Shown: positions 11,422 to 64,000 of the stretch, piece after piece
How positions within the stretch are numbered: position 1 is the stretch's first letter
Layout: the number at the start of each line of letters is the position of its first letter
DNA from: a virus
Taxonomy: Duplodnaviria; Heunggongvirae; Uroviricota; Caudoviricetes
DNA: 64,000 nt
Virus record (IMG/VR): IMGVR_UViG_3300009177_000029
Location: 105,064 to 169,063 of that record
Strand: one strand, 5' to 3'
Program-made: the position numbers and the translations under genes
The notes under the pieces: generated by a model
Databases searched by the model: none
Told to the model about the DNA's origin: nothing
What the model saw: only the letters and a program-made list of their open reading frames with translations

Positions 11422-11589
11422 CTATACTCGACGGGTACTATTTTTCAAAAATCTAATATCCGGAGGCAGGTACAGGACTTACCCGACCCCAAGGAATCCC
11501 TTTTGATACGTGCTTGTCAACCGTACCCCTTTTGATACATGGCCCATTCCGTGCATACGTATCTCCCCGGATACATGAGGAAATGTGTG

Positions 11590-14842: not shown

Positions 14843-14856
14843 GAAAGGTATGAATC

Positions 14857-14973: not shown

Positions 14974-14975
14974 CC

Positions 14976-15280: not shown

Positions 15281-15432
15281 TGCGAATCAAAGCCTTCGTG
15301 TCTCGCGATGCTCTGGTCCTCTGGACGTTGCGTGGACGCTTCCGCACGTGTCGCTACATGCTGCGATGGGTCGATCTGTGGATCGCGGGATGGTCCCTTG
15401 CGATTCTCGTGATCGCGTTCTTCCGAGGGTGA
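15277..15432 (+). CDS. small membrane protein (51 aa)
   Basis: ATGA overlap; ...WVDLWIAGWSLAILVIAFF hydrophobic helix. Confidence 0.25.
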   Translation: MMRIKAFVSRDALVLWTLRGRFRTCRYMLRWVDLWIAGWSLAILVIAFFRG

Positions 15433-17292: not shown

Positions 17293-17406
17293 CTCTGGGC
17301 AGGGCTTTGGAAGCGCTTGTGCCTCATATGCACAAGTATGACCGTTCGATTCGGTCCCGCACCATTCGTGTCATAGTGGCACGTACCAAAGAGAGGAAAG
17401 GTTTCT

Positions 17407-29370: not shown

Positions 29371-29378
29371 GGGTTCAC

Positions 29379-31595
29379 ATGCAGATTCCCGAGACTACCA
29401 TCGACGTCGAAATGGACAGCATCGAGTCGGAAGACGTCGAGATGGGCGTGGAGCTGAGTGCTCACGCATATGGTGTCCTCAGCAAAGGCTTGTACTCGGA
29501 TCCCTTCCGAGCCATCGTGCGTGAGTTGTGCTGCAATGCACGTGACGCACAGGTGGACAACGGGAACGCGGAAAAACCTTTCGAGGTTTGCCTGCCCAAT
29601 CCGATGGCGCCAGTATTCTCAGTCCGTGATTACGGGAAGGGAATCGCGCCGGAGAACATCAAGACTCTGTATACGTACTTCAAGAGTACGAAACAGGCAT
29701 CGAATCTACAGACTGGTTTCTTCGGTCTGGGATCCAAGAGCCCGTTCGCGTACACGAAGAAGTTCACGTGTATCAGTCGTCACGAGGGCGTGAAGTATCA
29801 CTTCTCTGTTCACCTCAACGCGAACGGGAAGCCCGGTACGCTGCTTCTGGCACAGAATCCGACGGATGAGGCTTCTGGTCTCGAAGTCTCGTTCTCTGTC
29901 GAGCCTCAGGATTTCGCGAACTTCCACAACGCAGCACGCCGTGCGTTGACGCCGTTCGCGATCAAGCCGACCATCCATGGAGTACACGGTAAGTTCTTCC
30001 AGGAAGAGCCCAAGCCTTTCCTGGAAGGACAGGGCTGGAAGCTGTACTCGAACCAATATGACCGCACGACGGGTCGTTATGGTTCGACGGCAGTTTCTTC
30101 CCTGACTGCACGCATGGGATATGTGGACTATCCCGTCGATGCGCAGGGCAAGAGCGGCATCAGCAAGAATGCGTCACAGCTTTGTGGCGCTCTGCTGTTG
30201 ATCGAGTTCCCCACTGGTGCGTTCGAGATCACGCCTGCGCGTGAAGCAATCCAGTGGACGGAATACAGCATCAACAACATCAACGAGCGGCTCGAAAGCA
30301 TCTACGAAGAGTTGGTGGCTCACGTCACCGAGAAGGTGTCGAAGGCTTCTTCTCTCTGGAAGGCAAACATTGCTTTCCAGAAGCTGATCGAGAATGGTCC
30401 GCTAGGTCAGTTGGGCATCCGGCCTACGTGGAATGGCCGGTCTGTCACCGGCAGTATGCACATTCCACACGAGTTCGATCTTCGCGCCATTCGTGCGACG
30501 ATGCCACGTCGTGATACAGAAGGCAAGAACGCAGCATCTGTCACGGAACTGTCTCAGCCGGTTCGTCCGCATGAGACACACTTCTACTACACAGACTTCA
30601 CTGGTTCGATGGCTCGAATCGTGAACTACGTACGTGACAAGTTCGCACGGAACCAGGAGTGTTACGTAATCGTTCCCATTCGCGAAGTCGAGGAGACTGA
30701 TCCTCGTCATGCGGAGTGGATGGTTCGTCATCCTAGTTCGCTGAACAATCCGTTCAATCCGAAGATTCTCAAGCGCAAGCCGACCTTCGACAAGGGAAAG
30801 CTTCCTGAGTTCCTCAAAGCCTTTGGCATCGAGGAGTCGGATGTGACGATGTGTTCGACGGTGCCACAGCGCCCTCGTGCAGCATCCTCACGACAAGCTC
30901 GCCTTGTGGGATCGAAGGCACGTGCCTTCTCGTTCAAGACGGAAGCATGGGGATCTGCGGCGGATCGGTATTGGGACGAAGCCGAGGTCGATCTGGCTGC
31001 GGTGAAAGAGGGCGTGTACGTCCAACTGGATTCGTGGCATCTTGTCAACACTGTGTTGGGCAAGCGTCCTCGTGAGTTCAAGTCGTGGCTCGAAGACTTC
31101 ACTGGCGCTGGTTTGACTTTGCCTCAACTCATTGGGGTGAAGACTGCTGACATCAAGAAGTTCGAGAAAGCTTCGAACTGGATCACGCTCGATCAGTACG
31201 TGCTGCGTACTCTGAAAGAGAAGTGGGCAGATCCCGAGTTCCAGTTGTGCTACAAGACGTGGTTGCTTCACGACCACGATACGTACTTCGAACACCTCGC
31301 AGCCTTCCAAGACAAGAAAGGATTGTCCGCTGGCTTCAAGAAGCTCGTCGAGCAGATTCACAAGGTCGTCACCACTGGTCCCACGACGCGTCACTTCCAC
31401 ACTTGTCTGCCTGGTTCGGCAGACTTTTACGGTGAGACTCAAACTGTGGACGGTGTTACGAATGCCCTTGTGACTCAGGCACTCAAGAGCTATCCTCTGT
31501 TGCCTGCGCTACTCGCAGACCGTCCCTCTCACTGGACCGTTCCCTACAAAGCAGTCATCGAATACTGCAAGCTCATCGACAACCAAGAAAGGTAG
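29379..31595 (+). CDS. rIIA: rIIA-like GHKL (histidine kinase/Hsp90-like) ATPase protein
   Basis: Bergerat-fold boxes: N box ELCCNARDAQ, G1 VRDYGKGI, G2 GFFGLGSKS; ~738 aa; followed by rIIB-size gene. Confidence 0.5.
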   Translation: MQIPETTIDVEMDSIESEDVEMGVELSAHAYGVLSKGLYSDPFRAIVRELCCNARDAQVDNGNAEKPFEVCLPNPMAPVFSVRDYGKGIAPENIKTLYTYFKSTKQASNLQTGFFGLGSKSPFAYTKKFTCISRHEGVKYHFSVHLNANGKPGTLLLAQNPTDEASGLEVSFSVEPQDFANFHNAARRALTPFAIKPTIHGVHGKFFQEEPKPFLEGQGWKLYSNQYDRTTGRYGSTAVSSLTARMGYVDYPVDAQGKSGISKNASQLCGALLLIEFPTGAFEITPAREAIQWTEYSINNINERLESIYEELVAHVTEKVSKASSLWKANIAFQKLIENGPLGQLGIRPTWNGRSVTGSMHIPHEFDLRAIRATMPRRDTEGKNAASVTELSQPVRPHETHFYYTDFTGSMARIVNYVRDKFARNQECYVIVPIREVEETDPRHAEWMVRHPSSLNNPFNPKILKRKPTFDKGKLPEFLKAFGIEESDVTMCSTVPQRPRAASSRQARLVGSKARAFSFKTEAWGSAADRYWDEAEVDLAAVKEGVYVQLDSWHLVNTVLGKRPREFKSWLEDFTGAGLTLPQLIGVKTADIKKFEKASNWITLDQYVLRTLKEKWADPEFQLCYKTWLLHDHDTYFEHLAAFQDKKGLSAGFKKLVEQIHKVVTTGPTTRHFHTCLPGSADFYGETQTVDGVTNALVTQALKSYPLLPALLADRPSHWTVPYKAVIEYCKLIDNQER

Positions 31596-46298: not shown

Positions 46299-47705
46299 AT
46301 GACAATGCGTTCAAACCTGATTCTCGATACGGATAGCTACAAGGCAAGTCATGAGGGTATGTACCCGCCTGGCATGGACAGCATGTTCTCCTACTTGGAG
46401 AGTCGTGGTGGTCTGTACAAGCACACGGTGTTCTTCGGGTTGCAGTATCTTCTCCGCGAGTATCTCTCCACTCCGATCACGCCTGCGGATGTGATCGAGG
46501 CGGAAATGTTCTTCAAGGACCATGGCGAGCCGTTCAACGCTGGTCCGTGGAACAAGTGCATCGAGAAGTTCGGTGGCTATCTGCCGATCATCATTCGTGC
46601 CGTCGAAGAGGGAACCGTAGTTCCTACGCACAACATCCTCATGAGTGTCGAGTCCTCGGGCAAGGACCCTGAGGTTGCGTCAATCGTTTCCTACATGGAG
46701 ACGATGCTCATGCGCATGTGGTATCCCATCACGGTGGCTACCACGAGCTACGAGTGCAAGCGTGTCATCATGCGGCACCTCAAGAAGACATCGGATGACC
46801 CGAAGGCCGAGATTGGCTTCAAGCTTCACGACTTCGGTGGGCGTGGTGTATCGTCGAGGGAAAGCGCCGGGATTGGTGGCGCTGCGCACCTTGCGAACTT
46901 CATGGGCAGTGATACGGTCGAGGGCATTCGCCTTGCGAACCTCGTGTACCACTCGCAGATGAGTGGTTTCAGCATCCCTGCAACCGAGCACTCTACCATT
47001 ACCTCTTGGGGTCGAGACAAGGAAGACGAAGCCTATGCGAACCTCGTCAAGCGCTTCTGCAAGCCCGGTGCACTCGTCGCCTGTGTCTCGGATTCGTATG
47101 ACCTGTACCGCGTTGTGGAACAGGTTTGGGGAGGTGACATTGGTCGAATGGTTGAGAGTAGTGGTGCTACTCTGGTCATTCGCCCTGATAGTGGAGACCC
47201 TGCGAGTGTTGTGTGTAATGTGCTCGACCTGATGAAGCGCAAGGTTGGCATGAGCATGAACAGCAAGGGTTACTACGTCCTTCCGAAGCACTTCCGCATC
47301 ATTCAGGGAGACGGCGTGAATCCTGTGTCCATCGACGAGATTCTCACGAAGATGGAACTCAGCGGTTACAGTGGCACGAACATCGCGTTTGGCATGGGTG
47401 GCGCACTGCTACAGAAGGTCGACCGTGATACGCAGAAGTTTGCGTACAAGTGTTCGTCCTGCACTGTGAACGGTGTCAAGCGTGACGTGTTCAAGGATCC
47501 GGTCACGGATCATGGCAAGATGAGCAAGCGCGGTGAGCTTGACCTCATCGAGAACGAGCGCGGTGACTTTCAGACGGTCACGCGTACGAGTCTCACGGAC
47601 GACAAGAGTCTACTCAAGGTCGTCTACAAGCCCGGCTTGATCGTACTCAACCAGGATCTGCAATCGATTCGCGGACGTATCGATGCAGCTCTAGATCAAG
47701 AGTAA
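46299..47705 (+). CDS. nadV: nicotinamide phosphoribosyltransferase
   Basis: N-terminal LILDTDSYKASH signature of NAMPT/NadV family, 468 aa, GGG/RPDSGD segments. Confidence 0.85.
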   Translation: MTMRSNLILDTDSYKASHEGMYPPGMDSMFSYLESRGGLYKHTVFFGLQYLLREYLSTPITPADVIEAEMFFKDHGEPFNAGPWNKCIEKFGGYLPIIIRAVEEGTVVPTHNILMSVESSGKDPEVASIVSYMETMLMRMWYPITVATTSYECKRVIMRHLKKTSDDPKAEIGFKLHDFGGRGVSSRESAGIGGAAHLANFMGSDTVEGIRLANLVYHSQMSGFSIPATEHSTITSWGRDKEDEAYANLVKRFCKPGALVACVSDSYDLYRVVEQVWGGDIGRMVESSGATLVIRPDSGDPASVVCNVLDLMKRKVGMSMNSKGYYVLPKHFRIIQGDGVNPVSIDEILTKMELSGYSGTNIAFGMGGALLQKVDRDTQKFAYKCSSCTVNGVKRDVFKDPVTDHGKMSKRGELDLIENERGDFQTVTRTSLTDDKSLLKVVYKPGLIVLNQDLQSIRGRIDAALDQE

Positions 47706-48294: not shown

Positions 48295-49401
48295 ATGAAT
48301 CTCGAAAAGCTTCGTGATAGTGCGGTCCCGCCTCGCGTCTATGTGATTGCGACGGGAGCCGGGTCTTCCATCCAGCAAAAGCTTTGGCGCCTTCCTGGCG
48401 CCAGCAAGTATCTCGTGGGCGCACAGTTCCCGTATGCTTGCGAAGCTACTCAAGAAGTATTGGGCTTCAAGCCTGACCACTTCGTGAGCGTCGAGACGGC
48501 CATCGCGCTTGCACAACGCGCCTACTACCATGCACTGGCTGCGAAGCGTCCTGGGGCTGCTGTGGGCCTGGGAATGACGTGTTCTGTGGCCAGTCTCGAA
48601 GAGCATCGTGGCGAGCACCGTATTATCACTGCGGTGGTAACTGACAACGTTTGTTTGTACGAAGAGTTTCCGCTCAAGAAGGGCGTCGGAAAGAAGACTC
48701 GTGCAGACGATGATGAGGCTGCTGAGGGCACGGCTCTTGCCATGCTTGCAACGGCACTCGGTCAGACGGTCAACGAGGACATCGCGCCTGTGGATGGCCA
48801 GGCTCTAGGTCGAAAGGTTTGGTTCGAGCGTCCACTTCATGTGCATGGCGCGTGTTCTGGTGTTCCGCTGAATGGTACACCGAAGCGTCCTGGTGCGCGA
48901 TTGTTGTTCGTGCCAGGTGCGTTCAACCCACTACACGAGGGTCACGAAAACCTGATTCATGCTGCGAAGTTGACCAGCGGAAGAGAGCCGATTCTGTCCA
49001 TCACGGCCAATCCACCGCACAAGCCGCACTTGACAGTACCTGAAATGATCGCTAAGGTACGACACCTGAAAGACCACGCAGTCTACTTCAACCAGGATCC
49101 ACTGTTCATCGATCAGGCGCGTCGCTTTCCTGGCGCAGCGTTTGCAATCGGTGCTGATGCGATGCATCGCATGCTCGACCCCAAGTGGTGTCCTGTTGAG
49201 CCCATGCTTGAGGAGTTCAAGCAGCTCGATACCAAGTTCTATGTCAGTTCACGACTCGTCGGAACTGAGTACATGGACTCTCTGGAAGTTCTGCGTGCCC
49301 ACAACATGAGCCTAAAGTATGTGGGCATGTTCCATGGAGTCGAAGTGCCACGTCTAGACATTTCTTCAACCCAAATCCGCAACGCACAAACGAAAGAGTG
49401 A
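48295..49401 (+). CDS. nicotinamide-nucleotide adenylyltransferase domain protein (C-terminal NMNAT; N-terminal domain unknown)
   Basis: FVPGAFNPLHEGHENL (HxGH nucleotidyltransferase motif) with downstream ISSTQIR; SD tgaggaaacc. Confidence 0.55.
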   Translation: MNLEKLRDSAVPPRVYVIATGAGSSIQQKLWRLPGASKYLVGAQFPYACEATQEVLGFKPDHFVSVETAIALAQRAYYHALAAKRPGAAVGLGMTCSVASLEEHRGEHRIITAVVTDNVCLYEEFPLKKGVGKKTRADDDEAAEGTALAMLATALGQTVNEDIAPVDGQALGRKVWFERPLHVHGACSGVPLNGTPKRPGARLLFVPGAFNPLHEGHENLIHAAKLTSGREPILSITANPPHKPHLTVPEMIAKVRHLKDHAVYFNQDPLFIDQARRFPGAAFAIGADAMHRMLDPKWCPVEPMLEEFKQLDTKFYVSSRLVGTEYMDSLEVLRAHNMSLKYVGMFHGVEVPRLDISSTQIRNAQTKE

Positions 49402-52042: not shown

Positions 52043-52248
52043 TGGTCCTCCTAGACTTGATTGTCGCCGTGATTGCTACAGTCGTGATCTTTTCCCTTGG
52101 ATTCGGAATCTCCAAGGCACACAGTCGTACTCTTCAACGAGAGTATGAGCGCGGTGTCTTGGATGGGCAGAACAAGGCAGAAGCTTACGTGCATTCCGTT
52201 GTGAGAGAAGTGCTAACCCAGGAACTCAAGAAGGATATCTACCGATGA
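52042..52248 (+). CDS. small membrane protein
   Basis: TGATG overlap; LLDLIVAVIATVVIFSLGFGI helix. Confidence 0.3.
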   Translation: MVLLDLIVAVIATVVIFSLGFGISKAHSRTLQREYERGVLDGQNKAEAYVHSVVREVLTQELKKDIYR

Positions 52249-53108
52249 ACAAGATGCTCATGATTCTTTTGGTCGCTCTCAGTTCCCTCATGGCCATTGG
52301 CTGTGGATGTACTACGGTCGCTCCGGGTACGGTCGGAATCGCAGTGGGCTGGAATGGTGTGGATGACAACATCCGTCATCCGGGTATGGTGGTGTACAAT
52401 CCCATCACTACCAGCATCCTTCCGATGAGCACGCAGACCGAGGTCTACGAGATGGCTGGACAGGACAGCATCCATGTGCTCACGCAGGATCAGCTTTCGG
52501 TGGACTTGGAGGTCACTGTCTCGTTCCACTTGAATGAGACCGACGCCGTTCAGGTGTACACGCTCTACAGTGCGGACTATGCGGGTCGTATCATCCACCC
52601 GATTGTTCGTACCGCAGTTCGTGACGCTGCGTCGCAATCCACGGCACTCGCACTGGTGGATCACCGTGATGAGCTACAGGCTCGCATGGAGTCTATGGTG
52701 CATGACCAGATTGTGTCCACTCTATCAAGTCGTGGTCTACCGGCAGACAGCTTTGTCGTGGAGAACGTGCTTCTTCGCAACATCGACTTGCCGCAGAGTC
52801 TGGACGACAGTATTGCAGCCGTCCAGCAGCAGCACCAAGCCACGCAGCGTCAGTTGGAGCTACAGGCTACTGCAACGGCAGAGGCTGAGAGTGCTCGCAT
52901 CCGAGCCGAAGGTGCTGCACGTGCAGCAGTTGCCGCAGCACAGGGTCAGGCGGATGCAAACCGTCTTCTCGCCCAGAGCTTGACGCCTGCGGTTCTTGAG
53001 TCTCGTCGGATCGAGCTGACTGGACAGCTTCTCGCGAACGAGCACACCCGTACGATCGTTCTCCCAAGCGGAACTACGCCGCTTTTGCAAATGGCCTCTG
53101 ATCAGTGA
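52245..53108 (+). CDS. SPFH/band-7 (HflC/K-, YqiK-like) lipoprotein
   Basis: Signal/lipobox LMAIGCGC; SPFH core and Ala/Glu/Gln-rich coiled coil EAESARIRAEGAARAAVAAAQGQADANRLLAQSL. Confidence 0.6.
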   Translation: MNKMLMILLVALSSLMAIGCGCTTVAPGTVGIAVGWNGVDDNIRHPGMVVYNPITTSILPMSTQTEVYEMAGQDSIHVLTQDQLSVDLEVTVSFHLNETDAVQVYTLYSADYAGRIIHPIVRTAVRDAASQSTALALVDHRDELQARMESMVHDQIVSTLSSRGLPADSFVVENVLLRNIDLPQSLDDSIAAVQQQHQATQRQLELQATATAEAESARIRAEGAARAAVAAAQGQADANRLLAQSLTPAVLESRRIELTGQLLANEHTRTIVLPSGTTPLLQMASDQ

Positions 53109-53566: not shown

Positions 53567-53710
53567 GCTTGCGGTAGTACGTAAGCCGTGCTATTCTTCT
53601 CGCGGGAGTTAAGATGCGTTTACCTCGTGATTTGCATGTTGTTGCCATGATTACCGGACGAAAGGGTGGAGCCTTCAAGGACACTCGGTCTGGTCGTGGT
53701 GGCACGCGCA

Positions 53711-53737
53711 ATACTCAGCAAGAGCTACTTGCTGAGT
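53711..53737. promoter_or_regulatory. perfect 11-bp palindromic hairpin tactcagcaag-agct-acttgctgagta
   Basis: Seen directly ~30 nt upstream of gene 53765. Confidence 0.4.
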
Positions 53738-53764
53738 ACGAGGACTCCCGCGAGGAGAGTCACG

Positions 53765-54622
53765 ATGGGCAGGAAAGTAGATCTAGAAAGAGCAGCACTA
53801 GTTGAGAAGCTTGGCGTAAGCAAGACCAAAAACTGGTCGAAGAAAGAGCTTCTAGAAATGGAAGCCAAGCGAGTAGCCAAGGAAGAAAAAGCAGCCGAGA
53901 AGAAGGCAATGACGGACATGATTGCAGGTCCGCCACCAACAATGCCAGCGGCTGAGCTACAGATTCCGTACGACCTACGCACCACACCGGATGACCCGTT
54001 CAATGGCCTCACAGAGCGTCAGAAGAACATCGCGCGTCTCCGTATGCGAGGTCTGTCACAGCAGACGATTGCCAACCTAGTTGGTGTCGCACAACCAATC
54101 ATTTCCAAGGAACTGGCGCGTATCAAGGAATGGCAAGCTGAGCAAGGCGCTAGCGTTGACCAAGCCGCTACAGTTGGCCACGTTCGATCAGTGTATTCCG
54201 AAGTGACAGAGGCGGCATGGCTTCTGTTCTCGAAGGCACAGAACGCTATGTTGGGTGAGAACCCCAATCCGAACGCGTTCGCCGATTCAGTGAAAGCACT
54301 TGCAGTCGTAACATCCTCGACGCAAGCACATACCAAGTTCCTCATGGACATGGGTATGTTGAAGAAGGCAGCACAAGAGATCAAGCACGTCATTGAGCCG
54401 TCTCCGTTCATCGCAAACTGGAAAGACGGATCTGCGAAGAAGAAGCTTGCGGACACGCTCGTTTCGAGTCAGCTTCCAGCATTGCCTGAGCCTACACCTG
54501 ACGACGTGATTGAGGGTGAGGTTCAAGAACAAGAAGTTGACATCGTGGTGCCGGCACCAAAGGTTTCTGATTTGGCTGAGCCTACGCCCGATGTAGAGGA
54601 GATTGAGCTTGAAGCCGAATAA
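53765..54622 (+). CDS. HTH (sigma-70 region-4-like) protein; possible terminase small subunit or transcription regulator
   Basis: LTERQKNIARLRMRGLSQQTIANLVGVAQPIISKELARI fits sigma70_r4 HTH; acidic C-terminus. Confidence 0.4.
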   Translation: MGRKVDLERAALVEKLGVSKTKNWSKKELLEMEAKRVAKEEKAAEKKAMTDMIAGPPPTMPAAELQIPYDLRTTPDDPFNGLTERQKNIARLRMRGLSQQTIANLVGVAQPIISKELARIKEWQAEQGASVDQAATVGHVRSVYSEVTEAAWLLFSKAQNAMLGENPNPNAFADSVKALAVVTSSTQAHTKFLMDMGMLKKAAQEIKHVIEPSPFIANWKDGSAKKKLADTLVSSQLPALPEPTPDDVIEGEVQEQEVDIVVPAPKVSDLAEPTPDVEEIELEAE

Positions 54623-55367
54623 TCAGTACGACCTAAGCCAGAACGCTAGGATGCACGCAGACAAGCATCCCTGTGTACCAGATCCGTATAGCCGCAATGG
54701 ATTCTTCGTAGAATCGGAGTTTCCTATGGCGAGTGAGTCGGTTGAGTACACTGACGGTATAGACACTTGGACTGAACAAGATGCTTGCAGCGGCACTCTG
54801 CCGGAGAGAAAACTCGACTCTTTGGAGAAAGAGTTTGAGAAGGGCATGGCCATCAGTATTGAAGAGCAGTTCGCTAAACGCGGATTTGTTAACGTCCCAA
54901 AGACTGTCATCGAACGCCTAGAAGCTCAGGCACGTGAAATAGTCAATGGGGCGTCCATGCCAGGTGTAGTGTGTGCCGAGGTCAACGTACAGCCTGAGTA
55001 TGAAGAGATCTTGGACGGTCGTCTCATCAAAGACATGGACGGCATTGAGGCAATGGTTCGTGTAGTCTCGAAGCATATCGAGATGGCCGAGGGCCTTGGT
55101 GCCAATGAGGATGGAACACTGGCTGTAGACCTGACTGCGGAAGAGTGGTCCTGGTTGGTGGTCTACGCGCAGTATTTTCAACAAGGTAAACCTGTACGCT
55201 TCCATGACGACTCTTGGACGATGCCGAAGCAGCATCATGGGTTTGCCAACCGTAAACCTGTTACCTTCACGCACCCTGTTACCTTCACGCACACCGCGAT
55301 TGAGAAACCGCGAGAACTTACCGAAGCTGAGAAACTACAGGAACGCATCAGGAAGGGACTGATATGA
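54603..55367 (+). CDS. hypothetical protein
   Basis: ORF track 254 aa. Confidence 0.35.
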   Translation: MSLKPNNQYDLSQNARMHADKHPCVPDPYSRNGFFVESEFPMASESVEYTDGIDTWTEQDACSGTLPERKLDSLEKEFEKGMAISIEEQFAKRGFVNVPKTVIERLEAQAREIVNGASMPGVVCAEVNVQPEYEEILDGRLIKDMDGIEAMVRVVSKHIEMAEGLGANEDGTLAVDLTAEEWSWLVVYAQYFQQGKPVRFHDDSWTMPKQHHGFANRKPVTFTHPVTFTHTAIEKPRELTEAEKLQERIRKGLI

Positions 55368-55942
55368 CATCCGTACGAATGATTGAGGCAATCCGTTACG
55401 CTACGCTCATGCATGGGACGCAGAAGCGTAAGGCGGCTAACCGCATGCACGTCCCGTACATGGTTCACCCTCTTGAGGTGACTGCCATTCTGATCGAGAA
55501 TGGTGTGACGGACGAAGACACGCTCATCGCCGCCGTCCTACACGATGTGCTTGAGGATTGCCGTGACAACGGAGCCAATGAGGAAGCTATCCGAAACAAG
55601 TTCGGTGAAGCAGTTCTCGGCTACGTCCTTGAGAACACGGACGACAAGGCACTCGATAAGAACGAGCGCAAGCGTTTGCAGGTTATCAACGCAGTTCACA
55701 AGAGTGCGCCCGCAGCACTCGTGAAGGCGGCCGATAAGACCAGCAACATGCGAGACATTGTGCGTGTTCCTCCGGGTTGGCCGCCTCACATCATCCGAGC
55801 GTACGTGCAGAATGCACGTGACGTCGTGAAGGCGCTTCCTGCGGAAACGTGTAACGCAGGCATTCGTGCAGCGTTCTACCAGGCGTCTCAGGATGCCTTG
55901 GATGCGGCTGCCGAGATGGAGGCCAATGCCAAGAAAGTCTAA
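55364..55942 (+). CDS. HD-domain metal-dependent phosphohydrolase
   Basis: HPLEV...LHDVLED (H...HD...D) motifs; ATGA overlap. Confidence 0.6.
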   Translation: MTSVRMIEAIRYATLMHGTQKRKAANRMHVPYMVHPLEVTAILIENGVTDEDTLIAAVLHDVLEDCRDNGANEEAIRNKFGEAVLGYVLENTDDKALDKNERKRLQVINAVHKSAPAALVKAADKTSNMRDIVRVPPGWPPHIIRAYVQNARDVVKALPAETCNAGIRAAFYQASQDALDAAAEMEANAKKV

Positions 55943-55961
55943 GAAGTCTCGTGGCGAGACG

Positions 55962-56321
55962 ATGAAGGTTATCGAAGCTCTCGCGGAGATTCTAGACGAA
56001 GTTGAACCCGAAACGAAAGAGGTTCAACTCCCGGTTCTTAACTGTAGCACCGGCTGTATTCAGAAAGCTATGGCAGCTCAGATCGTACTCGAAGCACTGG
56101 CTTCTACGATCTGGGAACCGGCTGAGTACAAGCACAACGGCTATGAGTATCTTGTCACTGATATCTCACTTGTAGTATTGACCAAGGATCGCCAAACGTT
56201 TGGAGTCACTATCCAAGCCATCAACAATCCGCGAGAGGAGAAGGAAGATATCCTTCTCCACAAGTTCTTGACCAACTACGTACCTGTGAGGCAGATCAAT
56301 GTCAAAGACTATCAGTCGTAA
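55962..56321 (+). CDS. hypothetical protein
   Basis: Internal Met of ORF 55866..56321; alternative start 55926. Confidence 0.3.
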   Translation: MKVIEALAEILDEVEPETKEVQLPVLNCSTGCIQKAMAAQIVLEALASTIWEPAEYKHNGYEYLVTDISLVVLTKDRQTFGVTIQAINNPREEKEDILLHKFLTNYVPVRQINVKDYQS

Positions 56322-56559
56322 AGCTCGGCATCGTCAGGTCTTCACGTTCGTGCTGTTCCATGGCAACTTCATGCACTCAATCGCGAAGCAAGCGTTTGTA
56401 GGAGTCGAGGATGCGAGGGAATCTGCCCGGAGTAAGATTGACTCGATGTGCCAGAAGCTAGGCATTGGCAAGTCCTACTTCACCTTCGAAGTGCTGCCTC
56501 TTCGTCTCATCAGTGAGACGAAACGCCCGAAGAAGTCACTGTCTCGCGGACCCTATTGA
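56299..56559 (+). CDS. hypothetical protein
   Basis: ORF track 86 aa. Confidence 0.3.
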   Translation: MSKTISRKARHRQVFTFVLFHGNFMHSIAKQAFVGVEDARESARSKIDSMCQKLGIGKSYFTFEVLPLRLISETKRPKKSLSRGPY

Positions 56560-56583
56560 CACGCGGCCGAGCCGCGTTATAGT
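56556..56583 (+). promoter_or_regulatory. sigma70-like promoter TTGACA-N16-TATAGT with hairpin spacer, upstream of HerA-like ATPase gene
   Basis: ttgaca 56556-56561, spacer acgcggc-cga-gccgcgt palindrome, tatagt 56578-56583, then SD ggag and ATG 56612. Confidence 0.4.
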
Positions 56584-56611
56584 AACGACTCACTCAAACG
56601 GAGATTGGAAC

Positions 56612-57958
56612 ATGACCAATATGATCGACCTTGGTTCCAAGACGGACCGTGACGGCAAGCTCATTCCTGTCAGCCTCAAGGCTGCTGCCCTCACGACCCA
56701 CGCGTGCATTGTTGGTGCGACTGGCTCCGGTAAGACGGGTCTGATCATCGGCATGATCGAAGACATGGTGCGCCAGGGTATTCCTTGCGCAGTCATCGAC
56801 ATCAAGGGTGACATGGCGAATATCGCTCTACAGCCGAGCGGTGAGATTCGCGACAAGATGAGCATCCGCTTCCTCACGCCAGGGGCAGACCACGGTGAGG
56901 CAGTCAACATTTTCAGTGGCATTGCGAACCCGGACCGAATCACGTCCACGGTGAGCACGCTCTGCAAGATGATTGGTGTGGAGAGTGATCCGCTGCGCTC
57001 CAAGCCGCATGCACTGATCTCGAACATCATCCAACACCGTCTCAAGAACAACCTGCCGATCACCATCATCGACGTGATGCAGGGCATTCAGGATCCGCCT
57101 TTCGCATACCTCGGTATGATGGAGGTGGACGATGTGATGCCTGCTGCCTCGCGTGGAAAACTTGCGGCGAAGTTGAACAACCTGCTCGCAGCGCCTGGCT
57201 TCCAGACGTGGCGTGAAGGTATCGACATCAACATCGATCGCCTGTTCCGTGCACCGGCTGGCAAGACGCCTGTGATCATCTTCTCGGTGGCTCACCTCGT
57301 GGATGACACGGAGCGTACATTCGGCATCAGCATGTTCCTTGAGGAAATGGTTTCCTGGATGCGCAAGCAGCCGGGTACGAACGACCTCAAGTCGTGTCTG
57401 ATTCTCGACGAAATGTATGGTGTGATGCCTCCGGCACCGCACAACCCGCCGACGAAGAAGCCGCTGCTGACGATGCTCAAGCAGGCTCGTGCACACGGTC
57501 TGGGCGTCATGATCTGTAGCCAGAATCCCATGGACCTGGACTACAAGGGCATGTCGAACGCACAGACGTGGCTCGTGGGTCGTCTACAGACGGAGCGTGA
57601 CCGTGACCGTGTGGTCAAGGGAATCTCGTCGTCTACTTCACAGGATGAGCGTGTGTTGGGTACTACGATCGCTCGGTTGCAGCCTCGTCAGTTCCTTGTC
57701 GTGCGCCCGAATGGCACGGCAGTGTTCACGACGAAGGATTGCAGCGCGACGCTACAGGGTCCTATGTCTCCTGCTGAGATTCGCTATCTCTTCGAGACGG
57801 GTATCACGGACGAGCTTGGGCTCATGGACAAGCTGGCAATCCAGCTTGACCTGGCACGAGCGGACTTCGAGGCTCACCCGAAGGACGAAACGAAGTGGAA
57901 GGCTTTGGAGGATATCCAGGCCCAGATCGATGCGGAAGCAAGCAAGGTAGGTCGATAA
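56612..57958 (+). CDS. HerA/FtsK-superfamily P-loop ATPase (DUF87/DUF853-like)
   Basis: Walker A IVGATGSGKTG followed by AVIDIKGD; Walker B CLILDEMYG; ICSQNPMDLD (QrP-like) motif. Confidence 0.5.
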   Translation: MTNMIDLGSKTDRDGKLIPVSLKAAALTTHACIVGATGSGKTGLIIGMIEDMVRQGIPCAVIDIKGDMANIALQPSGEIRDKMSIRFLTPGADHGEAVNIFSGIANPDRITSTVSTLCKMIGVESDPLRSKPHALISNIIQHRLKNNLPITIIDVMQGIQDPPFAYLGMMEVDDVMPAASRGKLAAKLNNLLAAPGFQTWREGIDINIDRLFRAPAGKTPVIIFSVAHLVDDTERTFGISMFLEEMVSWMRKQPGTNDLKSCLILDEMYGVMPPAPHNPPTKKPLLTMLKQARAHGLGVMICSQNPMDLDYKGMSNAQTWLVGRLQTERDRDRVVKGISSSTSQDERVLGTTIARLQPRQFLVVRPNGTAVFTTKDCSATLQGPMSPAEIRYLFETGITDELGLMDKLAIQLDLARADFEAHPKDETKWKALEDIQAQIDAEASKVGR

Positions 57959-57959
57959 C

Positions 57960-58283
57960 ATGCACGAAGAATCTGATGATGATGAAGTGGTGCCTCTCGA
58001 TTTCAATGAAGAACTCGGGGACTACTCACTACCTGACAACGTACGTCGTGCGCTAGTGCTGGCATGTCTGCGCCGCTTCATCACAGATCCTGATCTATTC
58101 GATCCGGACGATTTCAACGAGGCTGACAACAAGTTGGCTAACGCCGTTATGTTTCATGGCCCGTACGACGATTTCCAGATTGCGATGGAAAAGGCTGTAC
58201 GGATGCGCGCAATCGTGGTAACACCTCATTGTGTGTGGACCGAAGAGAGCAAACCTCATTACATCGTGAGTCTTTCGAACTAG
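57960..58283 (+). CDS. hypothetical acidic protein
   Basis: ORF track 107 aa. Confidence 0.3.
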   Translation: MHEESDDDEVVPLDFNEELGDYSLPDNVRRALVLACLRRFITDPDLFDPDDFNEADNKLANAVMFHGPYDDFQIAMEKAVRMRAIVVTPHCVWTEESKPHYIVSLSN

Positions 58284-58290
58284 GAGCACC

Positions 58291-58908
58291 ATGCTGAACC
58301 GTCTACGCCTCATGTTTCTGAACGCTTGTGTCTACATTGCAGCCAAACTTACTGCTGCGGCACAGTACATCTTCTCGGCTAGTGTTGGCCTCGCCATGAA
58401 ATGGGAGGCCAAGGAAGGTAAGCCGACAGCGGCAGTGGCAAAGGTCGAAGTGGCAAAGGAAGAGCCTGCTCCGGTCGCGGAGAAGCCCTCGGAGCGCCAT
58501 CGTCGACGTCGTAGGGAACGTACCAACGTCGAGGCTCCAAAGGCTGCTGAGGCGCCCACAGAGGCCGCAAAGCCAGCCCCGAAGGATCGACAGGCACTGG
58601 CACCAGAAGTCAATCCTTTCAGTGCGGGTGGCGTCGATGGTCCAGTTCCAATGTGCATGGATCCGCTGCCTACGTTCGTCATCTTCGAGGCAATGTTCAA
58701 CAAGAAGTACGGACGTAATGGTCGCTGCCCACTGAATGTGAGTGGGAATGCTCACGCATACACTGCACTGGAACTCTACACACTGCTTAGTAGGATCCAG
58801 TCGGATGGTGAGAAGGCCGGTCCTGTATACAACGCGCTCTATGGCACGTGTGTCAGCGTCATCCTGCACCAGCACGGGAAGCAGATTCAGGCAAAGGAAC
58901 TCAACTGA
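58291..58908 (+). CDS. hypothetical membrane-anchored protein with Ala/Pro/Lys-rich linker
   Basis: N-terminal hydrophobic helix; [14 protein letters not shown] low-complexity. Confidence 0.35.
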
Positions 58909-59300
58909 TGAAGCTCGCAGTCTGTATGGTCGTCTACAATCCGGAGGGAAAGCTGTGCATCGTTTCTCGAAAGAAGCGTGCTGGCGACTGGAACTTGCCT
59001 GGTGGCAAGGTTGACCCAGGTGAGACTCCCTCCGCAGCGGCTCTTCGCGAGCTAGTAGAGGAGACAGGGCTCTTGGGTCACAAACCCAAGTATGTCTTCT
59101 CTTCGGCTATCGAGGACTACTGTGTGGACTGTTATGTCATCCAAAGCTATCAAGGTGACATTCAGCAGATCGAGGGTGAAGGTGAGGTTCGTTGGGGTAG
59201 CTGGGACGACTTGCTACAGCCGGAACGTGCCTTCTTCGAGTACAACACGAAGCTTTACGAGCACCTCGTGAAGTTGGACATGGCGAACGTGAAGAAATGA
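58908..59300 (+). CDS. Nudix hydrolase
   Basis: Nudix box [23 protein letters not shown] (Gx5Ex7REUxEExGU). Confidence 0.75.
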
Positions 59301-60103
59301 GACAGTATCTCACCAACCTAGATCCCGAAGACGAGAAGCGGGCGCAAGCCGCAGCCACGAACAAATCTTTCGTCAATCGTCATCGATCAAATCAGTATCC
59401 GAAGACGTGGTGTGCGCAGTGCGGACACTTCTTTGGCAGCGAACCGTCGTGGGGTTCTCATGCAGATAGGCCAGCACACTTCTACGACCTACCAAGGCAT
59501 GAGAGGAAAGCAATCCTAGTCAAGTTGGAGACACCGGAGTACAAGCTGTTTCACAACAGTGTTGAACTTCACATGATCGATAAGCACCACTTTAAGAAGT
59601 GCGATCAATGTGGTGTACTCGTCAAGAACATCAAGACACATCAGAAGTCTATCGCGTGTTTGTGTACGGCCAAGCAGCGCCAGATGGAAGACCAAGGCTA
59701 CATGCAGGTTGGTCACATGATGGCTGTGTTCGAGGAGCTACTGCAAGACGACTTGCAAGCGCGTCTGTCGAAGGTCGGTGATGTAGTCGAGTTCGACCGA
59801 ATCAACGAAGAGTTCGAAGCAGAGAAGAAAGAGTTGGTCAAATCTCTCGCTATCCAGAACGTGGTGAGTGACTACTCCAAAGCTCAAAACTCCTTCGGAA
59901 ATACGTTGGGTTGGCAGTGGCGTCCTTGGGTGCCGCTTGACATCGGAGAAGGATTACTCTTTCTCTACAAACACATCAAGAAGAGCAACGATCGCAAGAA
60001 ACTACCCGGATACCTACAAGAGTTGAGAAACTTCACGAAAGCCGATGACGCAGGCAAGCAAGCAATCCTTGGCCTGTGGGAGTTGGCGGAAATGGTACCA
60101 TGA
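59297..60103 (+). CDS. GLWELA-family paralog with C2HC zinc fingers
   Basis: CAQCGHFF..H; [20 protein letters not shown] + [11 protein letters not shown]; C-term [12 protein letters not shown]. Confidence 0.45.
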
Positions 60104-60672
60104 AGATTCTATTCCTAGACGTCGATGGTGTGCTCAATGATGAGCAGACGTGCAAACGCGCTACATGGAAGGATGACCGAACGTTCTTCCGTCCTCTGTA
60201 CGTTGAGCGTGTCAATCGCATTCTGGCAGCTACAGGTGCCAAGCTAGTAATCTCTTCGTCGTGGCGTGTTCGTTACTCCACTCTCGAAGAGCTAAAGGCT
60301 GCGTTCCACAAGTTTGGCTTTGACCCAGATCTGGTCATTGACAAGACGCCAACTGGATACCGCAGTCGCCGGATGAGTGAGACTATGTACCGTGGTCTCG
60401 AAATCCAGCACTGGCTCTCGGACAACGCTGAGAATCACGACGTGGAATCAATCGTGATTCTTGACGATGACCAGGATATGCTCCATCTTGACCATCGTCT
60501 GATTCGCACTGAGGGATTTCGAGTTCCACTAGATGGCGGAATCAGCGAAGCTCAGGTTGCCGAAGCAATCGCACTGTTCAATACGCCCGACGATGTGCAC
60601 AAGCGCTTTGATTGGGACCAGTTTGTAGACAATCGCCAAGCCCACCTCAACTACTTGAAGGACAAGTCATGA
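60100..60672 (+). CDS. HAD-superfamily hydrolase (RNA-repair 'Swiss-army-knife' HAD-like)
   Basis: Motif I ILFLDVDGVLN, VISSSWR, ILDDD. Confidence 0.5.
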   Translation: MKILFLDVDGVLNDEQTCKRATWKDDRTFFRPLYVERVNRILAATGAKLVISSSWRVRYSTLEELKAAFHKFGFDPDLVIDKTPTGYRSRRMSETMYRGLEIQHWLSDNAENHDVESIVILDDDQDMLHLDHRLIRTEGFRVPLDGGISEAQVAEAIALFNTPDDVHKRFDWDQFVDNRQAHLNYLKDKS

Positions 60673-61076
60673 CTACCTGTTGCACGCCAGCGAAGATCCA
60701 GTACCTCCACGATCCCAAGGTTCCTCAGCGAGTTCTTACTCTCGTGTCCCGTGTGAACGGCGACAAGGTGGAGTATGGCTTTTCCTTGAACCGTCCCACC
60801 CGTTGGGTGAAGGCTGCTTTCAAGGACCGTCGCTACGAGGACTTGATCAAGGGCGACCAGTTCTCCAAGCAGCGCGGCCGTCAGATCGCGGAAGGTCGCT
60901 TGAACGCGGAGCCGATGGTGGCCGACCTTGTGGGTCGTGAACCTGACGTGGCCATTCTCGAAACGCTTCGTGATGCGAGCGACAATGCGTTGATTCGCAG
61001 GATTGCCCAGGGCGCTCTCTCCCACAGGGAGTTGAGCGAAGCACTCGCAAAGCTGCAAGCGTTGGTCACGAAGTGA
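60669..61076 (+). CDS. hypothetical protein
   Basis: ATGA overlap; 135 aa. Confidence 0.35.
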   Translation: MTTCCTPAKIQYLHDPKVPQRVLTLVSRVNGDKVEYGFSLNRPTRWVKAAFKDRRYEDLIKGDQFSKQRGRQIAEGRLNAEPMVADLVGREPDVAILETLRDASDNALIRRIAQGALSHRELSEALAKLQALVTK

Positions 61077-61130
61077 CGGGACTAGGGAGACTGCCTACGG
61101 GTGGTCTCCCTCTTCTTGTTTGGAGAAACT

Positions 61131-61781
61131 ATGACTATCAATCTATCCCTAGAACAGCGTGCACACTTGGCTACCTTGTACGGCGAGCCACAACGCAGGT
61201 ATCACACACTTGCACACGTTCACCAGCTTCTGCGCGAAATCGAAACCTTGAAGGTCGATCAAAAGACCAAGGAAATCCTCGAAGTCGCAGCGTGGTTCCA
61301 TGACTCGATCTACGATCCTCTTGCTCCAAAAGGCAAGAACGAAAACGACAGTCATCAGCTACTTATGTACTCGACACTAGGAAACCTGACCGGGAAACTA
61401 GCTGCCGGATACTGCATTCTGGCGACAAAAGACCATATCGTACCCGCAGATACGACTCCCGAAAACCAGGAAACGATAAAGCTGTTCCTGGATCTAGATC
61501 TCTCGATCCTGGGTCAGTCAGAGGACGACTATCTCACGTATGCTGTGCAAGTGGGGCAGGAATACATCCTCGCGGGTCTACCGGAAGAGAAGTACATTGC
61601 TGGACGTATGGTCTTCTTGCAAAAGAAGCTCAGTGCCCATGCTCCGCGTCACATCTATCATACCCAGGAGTTCCGTAACAGGTATGAAGCCGCTGCGCGA
61701 TTCAACATCCAAGATGAGTTGAATCGTTTGCAGGCAATGCTTGACCGCAAGAAGACACCAGCGCCAGAGTACAAACTCTGA
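61131..61781 (+). CDS. HD-domain phosphohydrolase-like protein
   Basis: RRYHTLAHVHQ...AAWFHDSIYDP (H..H...HD..D). Confidence 0.45.
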   Translation: MTINLSLEQRAHLATLYGEPQRRYHTLAHVHQLLREIETLKVDQKTKEILEVAAWFHDSIYDPLAPKGKNENDSHQLLMYSTLGNLTGKLAAGYCILATKDHIVPADTTPENQETIKLFLDLDLSILGQSEDDYLTYAVQVGQEYILAGLPEEKYIAGRMVFLQKKLSAHAPRHIYHTQEFRNRYEAAARFNIQDELNRLQAMLDRKKTPAPEYKL

Positions 61782-61802
61782 TTACTGCTCTACGTCTACT
61801 AG

Positions 61803-62237
61803 TTGGCCTCTAATGTTGATGACTTGAAGCCTAGTGACCTTTGCGCGGTCATAGGTTGGCTTCTCATCGGTATGAGCCTTAGGCTCGGGCACAAGCGTTT
61901 CGGTACGCTCCGGACACAGAATATCGATCGTGATGACCATACTGCCTCCTGTCTATACAGTATGGTCATACAAATCTGGTTTGTCAACATGCACACTCCT
62001 GTAGCGTTATTTAACAGAGCCCGGGTGTTACACGAGCTAGTGTTTCGCCCGCCACGTCCTCCGTTCAAGTATCAGGAATGGATGGACTCATTGGCTGACC
62101 ACGTAATCTACAGACGCACAGGAAAGTACGTGGACTTCAACGCCTTGAAAGAGGCGTACGAGGCTGGACTAAGCGGTGACATGGACAAAGTAGACCTCTA
62201 TCTCGGTATGCACCAACTAGCAAAGGAAGAAGACTAA
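61803..62237 (+). CDS. GLWELA-family paralog
   Basis: C-term LKEAYEAGLSGDMDKVDLYLGMHQLAKEED; start uncertain. Confidence 0.4.
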   Translation: MASNVDDLKPSDLCAVIGWLLIGMSLRLGHKRFGTLRTQNIDRDDHTASCLYSMVIQIWFVNMHTPVALFNRARVLHELVFRPPRPPFKYQEWMDSLADHVIYRRTGKYVDFNALKEAYEAGLSGDMDKVDLYLGMHQLAKEED

Positions 62238-62501
62238 ATGCCGTGTACGTACTATACCCCGGGTGAAGAAGCTGCGATGGCGAACGCTGAAAACCGCAAG
62301 CTCGCAGAGCAAGTCAACCAGTTGACACGTTTGCTCTGTCTGGCTTCCACGGTCGTCGTTGAGCAAAAGAAGCTCAAGGTGCCACAGTACAACGAGCTTG
62401 TAGACTGGTGGGAAGCGCACAAGAAGCACGACATAGAGCGAATCAAGAAGGAAGCCCTGGCCAAGCTCACGGCAGAGGAACGCAAAGCTTTGGGCCTATG
62501 A
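62238..62501 (+). CDS. hypothetical coiled-coil protein
   Basis: ORF track 87 aa. Confidence 0.3.
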   Translation: MPCTYYTPGEEAAMANAENRKLAEQVNQLTRLLCLASTVVVEQKKLKVPQYNELVDWWEAHKKHDIERIKKEALAKLTAEERKALGL

Positions 62502-62848
62502 TGCTGCGTCACTCGAAGAACTATCTACGCTTCATCTTTGTAGCGGAGCTACTAGCTCGTGCCACGGCATTTGTAGCTGCGATGTTCAAGGTCTTGTTCT
62601 GGTTCCGTTATCCGATTGAGGATTGGCCGCACTTCAAGATCTGGATCAACGCCGTCTATTCTCACAAGCGAACGTACCCCTACCTCTTCTGGGAGAAACA
62701 CATGAGACACTTCTATATCAAGCTACACATCCTTCGTCGTGAGCTAGAAGACTACAACGAAGAGGTCACAGGCTTCTTGAAGGAAGACGAAAAGAAGCCT
62801 GTTCTTGCTCCTCGCAAGCCACTCACGTGGCGGGACACGGTGCTGTGA
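62498..62848 (+). CDS. hypothetical membrane protein
   Basis: ATGA overlap; FIFVAELLARATAFVAAMFKVLFWF. Confidence 0.3.
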   Translation: MMLRHSKNYLRFIFVAELLARATAFVAAMFKVLFWFRYPIEDWPHFKIWINAVYSHKRTYPYLFWEKHMRHFYIKLHILRRELEDYNEEVTGFLKEDEKKPVLAPRKPLTWRDTVL

Positions 62849-63285
62849 TGGCCTTCGACCCTACTACTCCGAAGATTGCGGTTGATATCGTCCTTCGCTG
62901 CGGTCGAAAGATTGCTGTGATCGAGCGCAAGTGGCCACCGCTAGGCTTTGCTCTCCCTGGTGGCTTCGTGGACGTCGGAGAAACTCTGATGCATGCAGCT
63001 TGCCGTGAGACTCAAGAGGAAACTGGCATTGTCATCGGAGAAGACCAACTGCAAAGTCTGGGCTACCTAGATGACCCGAAGCGTGACCCACGACGTCACG
63101 TAATCTCGTTTGGGTTTATCGCCCACCTTGCTCCTATTCAAATCGAGTATGCCGCCGCGGCTGATGACGCAAAAAGCCTCCGCTGGGTGGATATCTTCGA
63201 CTACAAGAAGGAAGGCATCGAGTTCGTCATGCAACACGATATCTTTGTCACTCGTGCCGATCGTCACGTTCACTGGCTTCCATGA
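62848..63285 (+). CDS. Nudix hydrolase (second copy)
   Basis: Nudix box GFVDVGETLMHAACRETQEETGI; TGATG overlap. Confidence 0.7.
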   Translation: MAFDPTTPKIAVDIVLRCGRKIAVIERKWPPLGFALPGGFVDVGETLMHAACRETQEETGIVIGEDQLQSLGYLDDPKRDPRRHVISFGFIAHLAPIQIEYAAAADDAKSLRWVDIFDYKKEGIEFVMQHDIFVTRADRHVHWLP

Positions 63286-63623
63286 GCGAACACGAGTCTC
63301 CGGTCTACATCCCTAGAATGCACAAGTTTGGTTGGAAGAAACCAACACTGAATGGCCATATCAGCCTCGTGCGTTCTAGGTTACCTGCTTCGCAGATAGC
63401 TCAGTGGGATGCATTGTTCGATGATCCGGAAGGGTTCATACCTTCGTGGGTGGTTGACTTCCTGTGTATGGAATACGCGGAACGCCACGTGAAGCACCCA
63501 CGCGACTCCAAGTATTTTGGCTGGGAGTTGAAACCCATTTCCAAAGAGTTGCTGCAAGCAGCTTTCGATAAAGACTGGATGAAGTTCGACAGTATCATCG
63601 GCTTGTACGAGTTGGCCAAATGA
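63282..63623 (+). CDS. GLWELA-family paralog
   Basis: C-term LLQAAFDKDWMKFDSIIGLYELAK; starts MSEH like next gene. Confidence 0.4.
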   Translation: MSEHESPVYIPRMHKFGWKKPTLNGHISLVRSRLPASQIAQWDALFDDPEGFIPSWVVDFLCMEYAERHVKHPRDSKYFGWELKPISKELLQAAFDKDWMKFDSIIGLYELAK

Positions 63624-63979
63624 GTGAACACGCACTTCTACTTCCATGTTTGCTAGGCAGCGACGGCAACACCGAACGCTCTAGAGCATTCAATCTCATC
63701 CTGTCTTCTATGCCTTGGCCTGAGAGCGACAAGTGGTACGCCTTGTTCAAGAGCCAAGCAGGTTACGCACCTATGTGGGCGCTAACATTGCTGCAATACT
63801 CGAAAGAGTTTGAGCGTAGATACGACCAGGATGACCAAGGTAGAAGTGGCTGGATCACACAACCTAAATATACCATTCCACAAGAGTGGATAGACGCGTT
63901 CCATGCAGGTCTCAAGAACGACTGGCAGACGTTCGACAGTGTGCTAGGACTATGGGAGCTTTCTAAAGCAAAGGACTGA
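63620..63979 (+). CDS. GLWELA-family paralog
   Basis: C-term WIDAFHAGLKNDWQTFDSVLGLWELSKAKD. Confidence 0.4.
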   Translation: MSEHALLLPCLLGSDGNTERSRAFNLILSSMPWPESDKWYALFKSQAGYAPMWALTLLQYSKEFERRYDQDDQGRSGWITQPKYTIPQEWIDAFHAGLKNDWQTFDSVLGLWELSKAKD

Positions 63980-64000
63980 ATGGACAATAACACACTACGC

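Follow-up and report, generated by a model that had tools for sequence, protein, structure and literature searches.

What does a lone HerA/FtsK-like ATPase do in a tailed phage? The question is raised by a 64,000-nucleotide (nt) stretch of the virus record IMGVR_UViG_3300009177_000029 (IMG/VR, Caudoviricetes; positions 105,064 to 169,063; hereafter the window), in which a model that read the sequence without database searches had proposed an uncharacterised module of an HD hydrolase, a sigma70-like promoter and a 448-amino-acid (aa) ATPase (the original prediction). Here, we report that the protein is a catalytically intact ASCE P-loop ATPase of the HerA/FtsK superfamily, as judged by its motifs and modelled fold, with catalysis predicted. 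As an overall explanation, we give even odds to an ATP-driven DNA translocase that, by analogy with its relatives, would act on its own and belong to the early/middle, non-structural genome arm. What is new is a further member of a known superfamily; both the ATPase and its large bacterial sister family are without assigned function.

The ATPase and its place in the HerA/FtsK superfamily

The gene under study starts and ends where it had been placed:

56612 to 57958, plus strand: HerA/FtsK-superfamily (DUF87/DUF853-type) P-loop ATPase, 448 aa; ATG at 56612, the stop codon ends at 57958

Four motifs, Walker A (GATGSGKT; residues 35 to 42, nt 56714 to 56737), VIDIKGD (residues 61 to 67), Walker B (LILDE; residues 263 to 267, with D266-E267 at nt 57407 to 57412) and CSQNPMDLD (residues 301 to 309), are invariant or near-invariant in alignments of 27 and 65 homologues. 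All four had been read correctly from the sequence (two of them as AVIDIKGD and ICSQNPMDLD), except that the second was said to follow Walker A directly; it lies on the next strand, 18 residues past it. Across the family, 53 columns are invariant, including K41, D63/K65/G66/D67, D266/E267, Q304/N305 and several arginines (R293, R333 and R359), and an invariant proline-rich loop (PP-x-P-x-NPPTKKP) follows Walker B. The protein lacks transmembrane segments, as predicted (highest Kyte-Doolittle 19-residue mean, 1.43), and neither a Pfam scan nor an AlphaFold2 model (pLDDT 94; pTM 0.89) contains a nuclease domain, so the terminase nuclease is missing as had been said. In the model, a short N-terminal beta-hairpin (residues 4 to 23) leads into a RecA-like core that bears a helical insert, and at the C terminus stands a helical hairpin (residues 404 to 446) peculiar to closer relatives; in the model and in Foldseek comparisons, the HerA-like core and this helical hairpin cover the whole 448 aa. 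Since the beta-hairpin alone stands before Walker A, the ATPase has no canonical HerA HAS barrel, the platform where NurA, SIR2 or DUF4297 binds.

Profile and structure searches agree on the superfamily. The ATPase scored above the Pfam cut-offs for HerA_C (PF05872, DUF853; 39.3 bits, cut-off 22, residues 19 to 88 only) and DUF87 (PF01935; 35.4 bits, cut-off 23.2) and below that for FtsK_SpoIIIE (15.8 bits, cut-off 24); it also differs from the FtsK/SpoIIIE translocases in having no N-terminal membrane anchor. Foldseek against the PDB placed Thermococcus HerA-NurA first (9x1m; E 2e-16), with Sulfolobus HerA close to it (4d2i; E 6e-16), and the top 50 matches were mostly HerA hexamers, together with SIR2-HerA, DUF4297-HerA, the DndH C-domain and TdpAB. 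The predicted HerA/FtsK identity is thus borne out by both Pfam and Foldseek (E about 1e-16), and the lack of HerA-family similarity that would have told against it was not seen. We hold these identity claims with high confidence.

Assignment to a named functional family fails. The RecA-like core and helical insert are shared with archaeal and bacterial HerA (HerA-NurA; 4d2i, 9x1m; query-normalised template modelling score, 0.58 to 0.61), but identity is about 15 to 17%, the HAS domain is missing, and the ATPase reaches 21 to 21.5 bits against cut-offs of 800 to 970 for the NCBIfam HerA equivalogs. Neither the Pfam, PHROGs and PADLOC scans of the window neighbours nor the precomputed Pfam annotation for related loci gave a NurA match; some small open reading frames (ORFs) stay unassigned. 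Because the NCBIfam equivalogs as a whole (HerA, anti-phage HerA, CedB/CedD and TraD) score so far below their cut-offs (20 to 33 bits versus 366 to 970), the ATPase is best described as a superfamily member outside the named functional families.

By sequence, the nearest solved relatives are bacterial HerA (8wiv) and Escherichia coli YjgR (11kk). In phmmer, residues 27 to 312 align to YjgR residues 25 to 313 (E 9e-7), and HerA is also matched. The architecture resembles that of DUF853/YjgR-type proteins: YjgR is likewise a stand-alone P-loop ATPase with Walker A about 30 to 40 residues from the N terminus, shares D-x-KGD after strand 2 and the QNP sensor motif, and presumably also has no HAS barrel. 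The two are nonetheless distant, and the proline-rich loop is the phage family's own. In full-text literature searches, no paper had YjgR, or DUF853 in phages, as its main subject, and none dealt with the function of YjgR or of DUF853 or DUF87 in phages.

Several of the matches come from anti-phage systems, as would fit a phage-carried defence or superinfection-exclusion protein akin to anti-phage HerA or to Mad8 of MADS. PADLOC matched mad8 (E 2.4e-12; residues 16 to 333) and several HerA models, all at the sub-family level, and the fold is shared with SIR2-HerA (Nezha) and DUF4297-HerA. The hidden Markov model matches to these systems are partial, however, with the NCBIfam HerA_antiphage model (NF042943) at 30 bits against a cut-off of 800; the HAS platform is absent; and neither SIR2, DUF4297 nor another effector partner was found beside the gene by Pfam and PADLOC. 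Unlike typical cargo, the gene recurs and is kept across deep phage lineages. We regard a defence role as very unlikely.

Relatives in uncultured phages and in bacteria

A word-indexed search returned relatives of about 390 to 450 aa down to about 40% identity, all on metagenomic contigs of up to 169 to 172 kb; below these phage-type relatives came bacterial proteins of 500 to 780 aa named merely "DUF87/DUF853/ATP-binding". An exhaustive HMMER scan gave 1,475 clusters (50% identity; E ≤ 1e-30), most of which belong to a bacterial sister family, and most of the top 150 are about 750 to 860 aa long. Stretches encoding a relative number at least 565 in metagenomes and at least 597 in a collection of one genome per species; among the matches listed are Planctomycetota, Acidobacteriota, Chloroflexota, Myxococcota, Verrucomicrobiota and a few archaea. 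In a neighbour-joining tree, the short phage-type proteins (387 to 452 aa) form one deep clade apart from the long bacterial forms, and this clade was found only on uncultured tailed-phage contigs. Against 50,697 deposited phage records, tblastn detected no homologue past a 54-residue P-loop match in one Klebsiella phage, and the 2.6-kb region had no match to phage records at the DNA level; the phages carrying the ATPase have no cultured representative in that set. The best structural match in BFVD is a DUF853-like protein of a Klebsiella phage. Once established, the function of the ATPase would give an annotation to a gene that recurs in uncultured soil phages, and would probably also illuminate the bacterial family.

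The nearest sequence relatives are the bacterial proteins of about 800 aa annotated as DUF87 domain-containing or ATP-binding proteins (36 to 40% identity over about 390 aa). They carry the same motifs and likewise lack the HAS barrel, but have an extra C-terminal half of about 400 aa, a coiled coil with a hydrophobic segment, that is missing from the phage ATPase. Their genes are chromosomal with housekeeping neighbours, and the phage ATPases form a separate clade. Examples among the bacterial loci collected (L097 to L176; loci are cited by L numbers) are those of Schlesneria sp. T3-172 (L165) and Adhaeretor mobilis HG15A2 (L173), both complete genomes; the genes of this very widespread family stand alone. 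No operon partner is conserved beside the bacterial homologues, and the best neighbour cluster is shared by 12 of 131 loci. Of the Pfam families seen in 105 flanking genes, amidohydrolase, OmpA and MOFRL/DUF4147 recur most, and MscL and ferritin also occur. The context of the bacterial homologues is housekeeping, not defence islands or mobile elements, and we count the absence of conserved neighbours in the sister clade in favour of a self-contained ATPase function.

Two phage-type members from outside the window (P0134 and P0139) are longer than the rest. A Rosetta-stone search had raised their extra length as fused partner domains; the insertions are inteins (Hint and LAGLIDADG domains by Pfam), placed exactly in the P-loop (GSGK|C...HN|TG). 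Inteins and homing endonucleases tend to sit at conserved positions in enzymes that matter for replication, repair and packaging, and inteins in the P-loop fit an active, selected ATPase better than a decoy.

This last point bears on an alternative in which the ATPase would be a truncated, motor-only copy of the host's homologue of about 800 aa, forming mixed rings that hijack or poison a host function. It would fit the 36 to 40% identity between the phage protein and the N-terminal ATPase of the bacterial proteins, the lack of the coiled-coil half and the separate clade of the short forms. Strict conservation of the catalytic residues within that clade, and the persistence of the P-loop inteins, speak instead for an active enzyme; the bacterial homologues are not found in defence islands or mobile elements; and the idea presupposes a homologue of about 800 aa in the host. 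We consider it unlikely. A broader version, in which a motor-only derivative of the family would be used outside classical replication, repair and packaging, either in mixed rings that take over a host process or as a cytoplasmic pump that acts early and finishes the entry of the genome of about 170 kb, is in our judgement no likelier; if true, it would offer a first way into the function of the phage clade and the bacterial family alike.

The terminase and the HD gene

Could the stand-alone ATPase be a packaging motor, either the terminase large subunit (TerL) itself or a second, FtsK/HerA-type packaging ATPase as in membrane-containing viruses? Among PHROGs the ATPase matches one unknown family and phrog_2666, labelled terminase large subunit (E 1.9e-14), and the packaging ATPases of PRD1/A32-type viruses are weak structural matches. 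No TerL homologue was found inside the window. It lies just outside, on a contig (L181) that was retrieved via the last complete gene of the window and differs from window positions 53620 to 64000 at 4 of 10,381 nt:

L181 15257 to 17053 (window-equivalent about 68876 to 70672), strand opposite to the ATPase: gpA-type TerL (GpA_ATPase), 598 aa

This TerL gene lies about 10.9 kb past the ATPase stop codon, and ParB_N and DegT-like genes come next. Its product aligns over about 90% of its length to the annotated TerL of Thermus, Bordetella and other phages at 24 to 29% identity, and a TerL-ParB_N pair stands 2 to 7 kb downstream of the ATPase in L005/L006, L008/L010, L012, L177 and L178. The original prediction had advised looking for the true terminase elsewhere, and a gpA-type TerL is there in the same phage and in six related loci; the ATPase itself has no terminase or nuclease match in Pfam, and its gene sits among metabolic genes in the non-structural arm behind a sigma70-type promoter. 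The ATPase is clearly not the terminase, and a packaging role is largely refuted and scarcely credible. The PHROG label was rejected, as the match covers residues 261 to 366 only and a separate TerL is present.

The other claim to settle was the module itself. The genes upstream of the ATPase are these:

53765 to 54622, plus strand: C2, a LuxR/GerE or sigma-region-4 helix-turn-helix (HTH) protein, 285 aa; C-terminal half helical, tail acidic
54726 to 55367, plus strand: protein of 213 aa as called (254 aa for the longest ORF, from 54603)
55364 to 55942, plus strand: Mesh1-type small alarmone hydrolase (HD_4), 192 aa, full-length and single-domain
55962 to 56321, plus strand: C13, a small conserved protein

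The HD protein is identified by Pfam HD_4 (53.5 bits, cut-off 27.2), and RelA/SpoT N-terminal hydrolase models match it as well. Residues 3 to 165 of 192 align to Drosophila (E 3e-29) and human (E 6e-27) Mesh1, with H35, H60-D61, E64-D65, D124 and N128 in matched columns; we take these to be the counterparts of the Mesh1 metal-binding and catalytic residues. No difference from Mesh1 or other small alarmone hydrolases was found, and it looks like an ordinary member. From its sequence, this is a separate, predicted (p)ppGpp/alarmone hydrolase of the Mesh1 type; candidate substrates are (p)ppGpp, (p)ppApp, NADPH and modified tRNA ends.

Neighbours were compared across 17 distinct phage-type loci (jackhmmer on all ORFs). 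HD_4 adjoins the ATPase in 4 of them, in the order HD-HerA in the window and L004, HerA-[GIY-YIG]-HD-AAA in L005 and HerA-HD...AAA in L012. It was not found within 6 to 10 kb of the ATPase in the other 13 lineages, including two whose ATPases are 60 to 65% identical (L008 and L009), although in L007, L010 and L014 the upstream flank is too short to tell. A further 47 phage records carry Mesh1-type HD homologues and lack the ATPase. An HD-HerA module is therefore not obligate, and the proposed functional unit of HD hydrolase, promoter and ATPase is not supported. C2 and C13, which are neighbours in several other lineages, are separated in the window by the unknown 213-aa gene and the HD gene; the HD gene thus behaves as facultative cargo. 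It is probably independent of the ATPase.

The existence of two different HD/HerA arrangements leaves a small probability of a functional link. In that case, the ATPase would be a scaffold that complexes with and regulates the HD hydrolase, and in relatives also a 610- to 665-aa AAA+ protein, much as the HerA hexamers of defence systems assemble SIR2 or DUF4297 and activate them. HD_4 stands next to the ATPase in four lineages and in both gene orders, the AAA+ gene adjoins it in 4 of the 17 loci (L004, L005, L007 and L012), and after archaeal HerA the HerA-effector complexes are the nearest solved structures. Set against this are the 13 lineages in which HD_4 was not found at that distance (three with a short upstream flank), the 47 phage records with the HD gene on its own, the missing HAS barrel, which is the partner-binding platform, and the absence of the AAA+ gene from the window. 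A true HD-HerA module is accordingly doubtful, at a level we would call unlikely. Two misannotations are thereby removed, the PHROG label "terminase large subunit" and an "HD-HerA defence-like module".

In L005, GIY-YIG/NUMOD3 homing-endonuclease genes flank the HD_4-AAA+ pair: the first (11240 to 11890) lies between the HerA-like gene and HD_4, the second (14733 to 15347) after the AAA+ gene.

Promoter, proposed role and genome context

The stretch just upstream of the ATPase holds the following:

56299 to 56559, plus strand: lineage-specific ORF of 86 aa, whose stop codon overlaps the -35 hexamer
56556 to 56583, plus strand: sigma70-type promoter-like site TTGACA-N16-TATAGT, 28 nt upstream of the ATG
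56561 to 56577, plus strand: inverted repeat within the spacer of that site (stem 7 bp, loop 3 nt)
56600 to 56604, plus strand: Shine-Dalgarno sequence GGAGA, 7 nt ahead of the ATG

The promoter-like site had been noticed in the original prediction. It agrees with the consensus at 11 of 12 positions, is the top-scoring site between 46000 and 64000, and is the sole exact match in the window; the overall number of promoter-like sites in that interval is at chance level (9 found, 8.8 expected). L004 and L007, whose ATPases are 75 to 78% identical, have a -35 TTGACAC at the same position, 56 to 60 nt ahead of the start codon; a spacer of 16 nt separates it from TAGGGT or TAAGGT, beyond which GGAGA-N-CTGGAAC-ATG is conserved. 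This -35 is missing in more distant relatives. A putative host-type promoter that overlaps the end of the upstream transcript is plausible.

The palindromic hairpin described for the spacer is also there, its stem beginning two bases past the stop codon of the 86-aa ORF. It folds with a free energy of -13.1 kcal/mol (z -1.9), and 10 of 200 shuffled sequences fold just as well; L004 has a stem of other sequence in the same place (z -2.6) and L007 has none, so that support for a conserved element is modest. A T7-promoter-like string that had been pointed out in the spacer (AACGACTCACT) occurs once, with 17 near-matches against 22.8 expected, and was set aside as coincidence. No repeated T7-type promoter was found, the string being unique and its near-matches at or below chance; a gene for a T7-type RNA polymerase was not searched for.

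On the reading we prefer, the ATPase would be transcribed from its own host-type (sigma70) promoter by the host RNA polymerase, and such a promoter makes expression early or in mid-infection probable. By analogy with HerA, FtsK and DUF853 proteins, the product would assemble into a hexameric ring that spends ATP to translocate along double-stranded DNA. The setting would be phage DNA replication, recombination, concatemer handling or host-DNA handling, and not packaging.

Several points weigh against this picture. Substrate and oligomeric state are drawn by analogy, and because HerA-superfamily rings also move proteins (VirB4, EssC-type) or only scaffold effectors (SIR2-HerA), DNA translocation is an analogy too; we put that function itself at somewhat less than even. 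Among the loci compared, neither a nuclease nor another obvious DNA-processing partner stands steadily beside the ATPase, and the recurrent neighbours C1, C13 and C2 are without assigned function. Gene order shared by related phages says little about linkage, whether for it or against it. The early timing follows from the consensus match alone, in which the spacer is 16 nt instead of the optimal 17 nt. Presence of the ATPase in each related phage locus retrieved is to be read with the fact that the loci were picked by searching for its gene.

The neighbours named in the original prediction (HTH, unknown and HD proteins upstream, small unknowns and a Nudix enzyme downstream) are all as described. 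Its term "orphan" needs qualifying: the ATPase belongs to a recurrent block with the LuxR/sigma-region-4 HTH protein and two small unknowns. Downstream lie three further genes of the comparison:

57960 to 58283, plus strand: C3, 107 aa
58291 to 58908, plus strand: C4, 205 aa
60669 to 61076, plus strand: C1, 135 aa, with the motif D-x-F-x-K-x-x-G-R-x-I-A-x-G-R

C2, the recurrent upstream neighbour, is present in 12 of the 17 loci; PDB and PHROG profiles recognise its HTH only. With its N-terminal HTH, helical domain and acidic tail, it was considered as a terminase small subunit (TerS), and no TerS family match was found. C13 (9 of 17 loci; no Pfam or PHROG match) comes straight after C2, or no more than about 230 nt past it, in L008, L011, L013, L178 and L179; in several relatives the two are adjacent and often overlap. 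The 213-aa protein has no homologue in the related loci. C1 occurs in 11 of the 17 loci and stands immediately upstream of the ATPase in four distant lineages (L005, L011, L012 and L013); a PDB profile search gave no match, a second homology search found 12 relatives, and its AlphaFold2 model has a pLDDT of 85. C3 and C4 are without family matches and were found only where the ATPase of the relative is at least about 60% identical. DNA-metabolism genes near the ATPase in relatives include ligase, an RNase_T-like exonuclease, RNase HII, RtcB and Dam.

The ATPase gene lies on the plus strand in the non-structural arm of the genome. The same arm encodes a class II ribonucleotide reductase, DNA ligase, MoxR-AAA/VWA proteins and an HSP90-like ATPase, together with NAMPT, NMNAT, two Nudix enzymes, an HAD enzyme, Dam, NADAR, YAcAr and a CCA-adding enzyme. 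In the precomputed Pfam annotation, NAMPT (NAMPT_N and NAPRTase; 46299 to 47705) and an NMNAT-like CTP_transf_like gene (48295 to 49401) stand side by side. The Nudix genes are at 58908 to 59300 and 62848 to 63285, and NADAR and YAcAr lie just past the window (L181 12462 to 13575). The NAMPT/NMNAT/Nudix/NADAR/YAcAr genes look like a phage set for NAD+ salvage or reconstitution (NARP2-like) with ADP-ribose processing. A gene of the CCA-adding enzyme/poly(A) polymerase family (L181 14071 to 15270; window-equivalent about 67690 to 68889) comes just before the convergent TerL gene; taken with the Mesh1-like hydrolase and, in L178, with RtcB, it may point to cargo for tRNA repair or counter-defence.

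Elsewhere in the window, the class II (B12-dependent) ribonucleotide reductase occupies 3078 to 5051 on the minus strand, at the window start. A single plus-strand block holds a weak dynein/MoxR-like AAA match (24994 to 26139), a VWA protein (DUF2201; 27268 to 28281) and a 757-aa HSP90/GHKL-type ATPase (29322 to 31595). An SPFH/Band_7 protein (52245 to 53108) has an N-terminal hydrophobic, lipoprotein-like leader. A second protein with an H...HD-like motif (61131 to 61781; HVHQLL...WFHDSIYDP) has a weak DUF7180 match only, and ahead of its gene is the strongest terminator-like hairpin of the region (61084 to 61111; 12 bp). No Rfam family scores anywhere in the window, and a single tRNA-Met (CAT) is present at 17293 to 17363.

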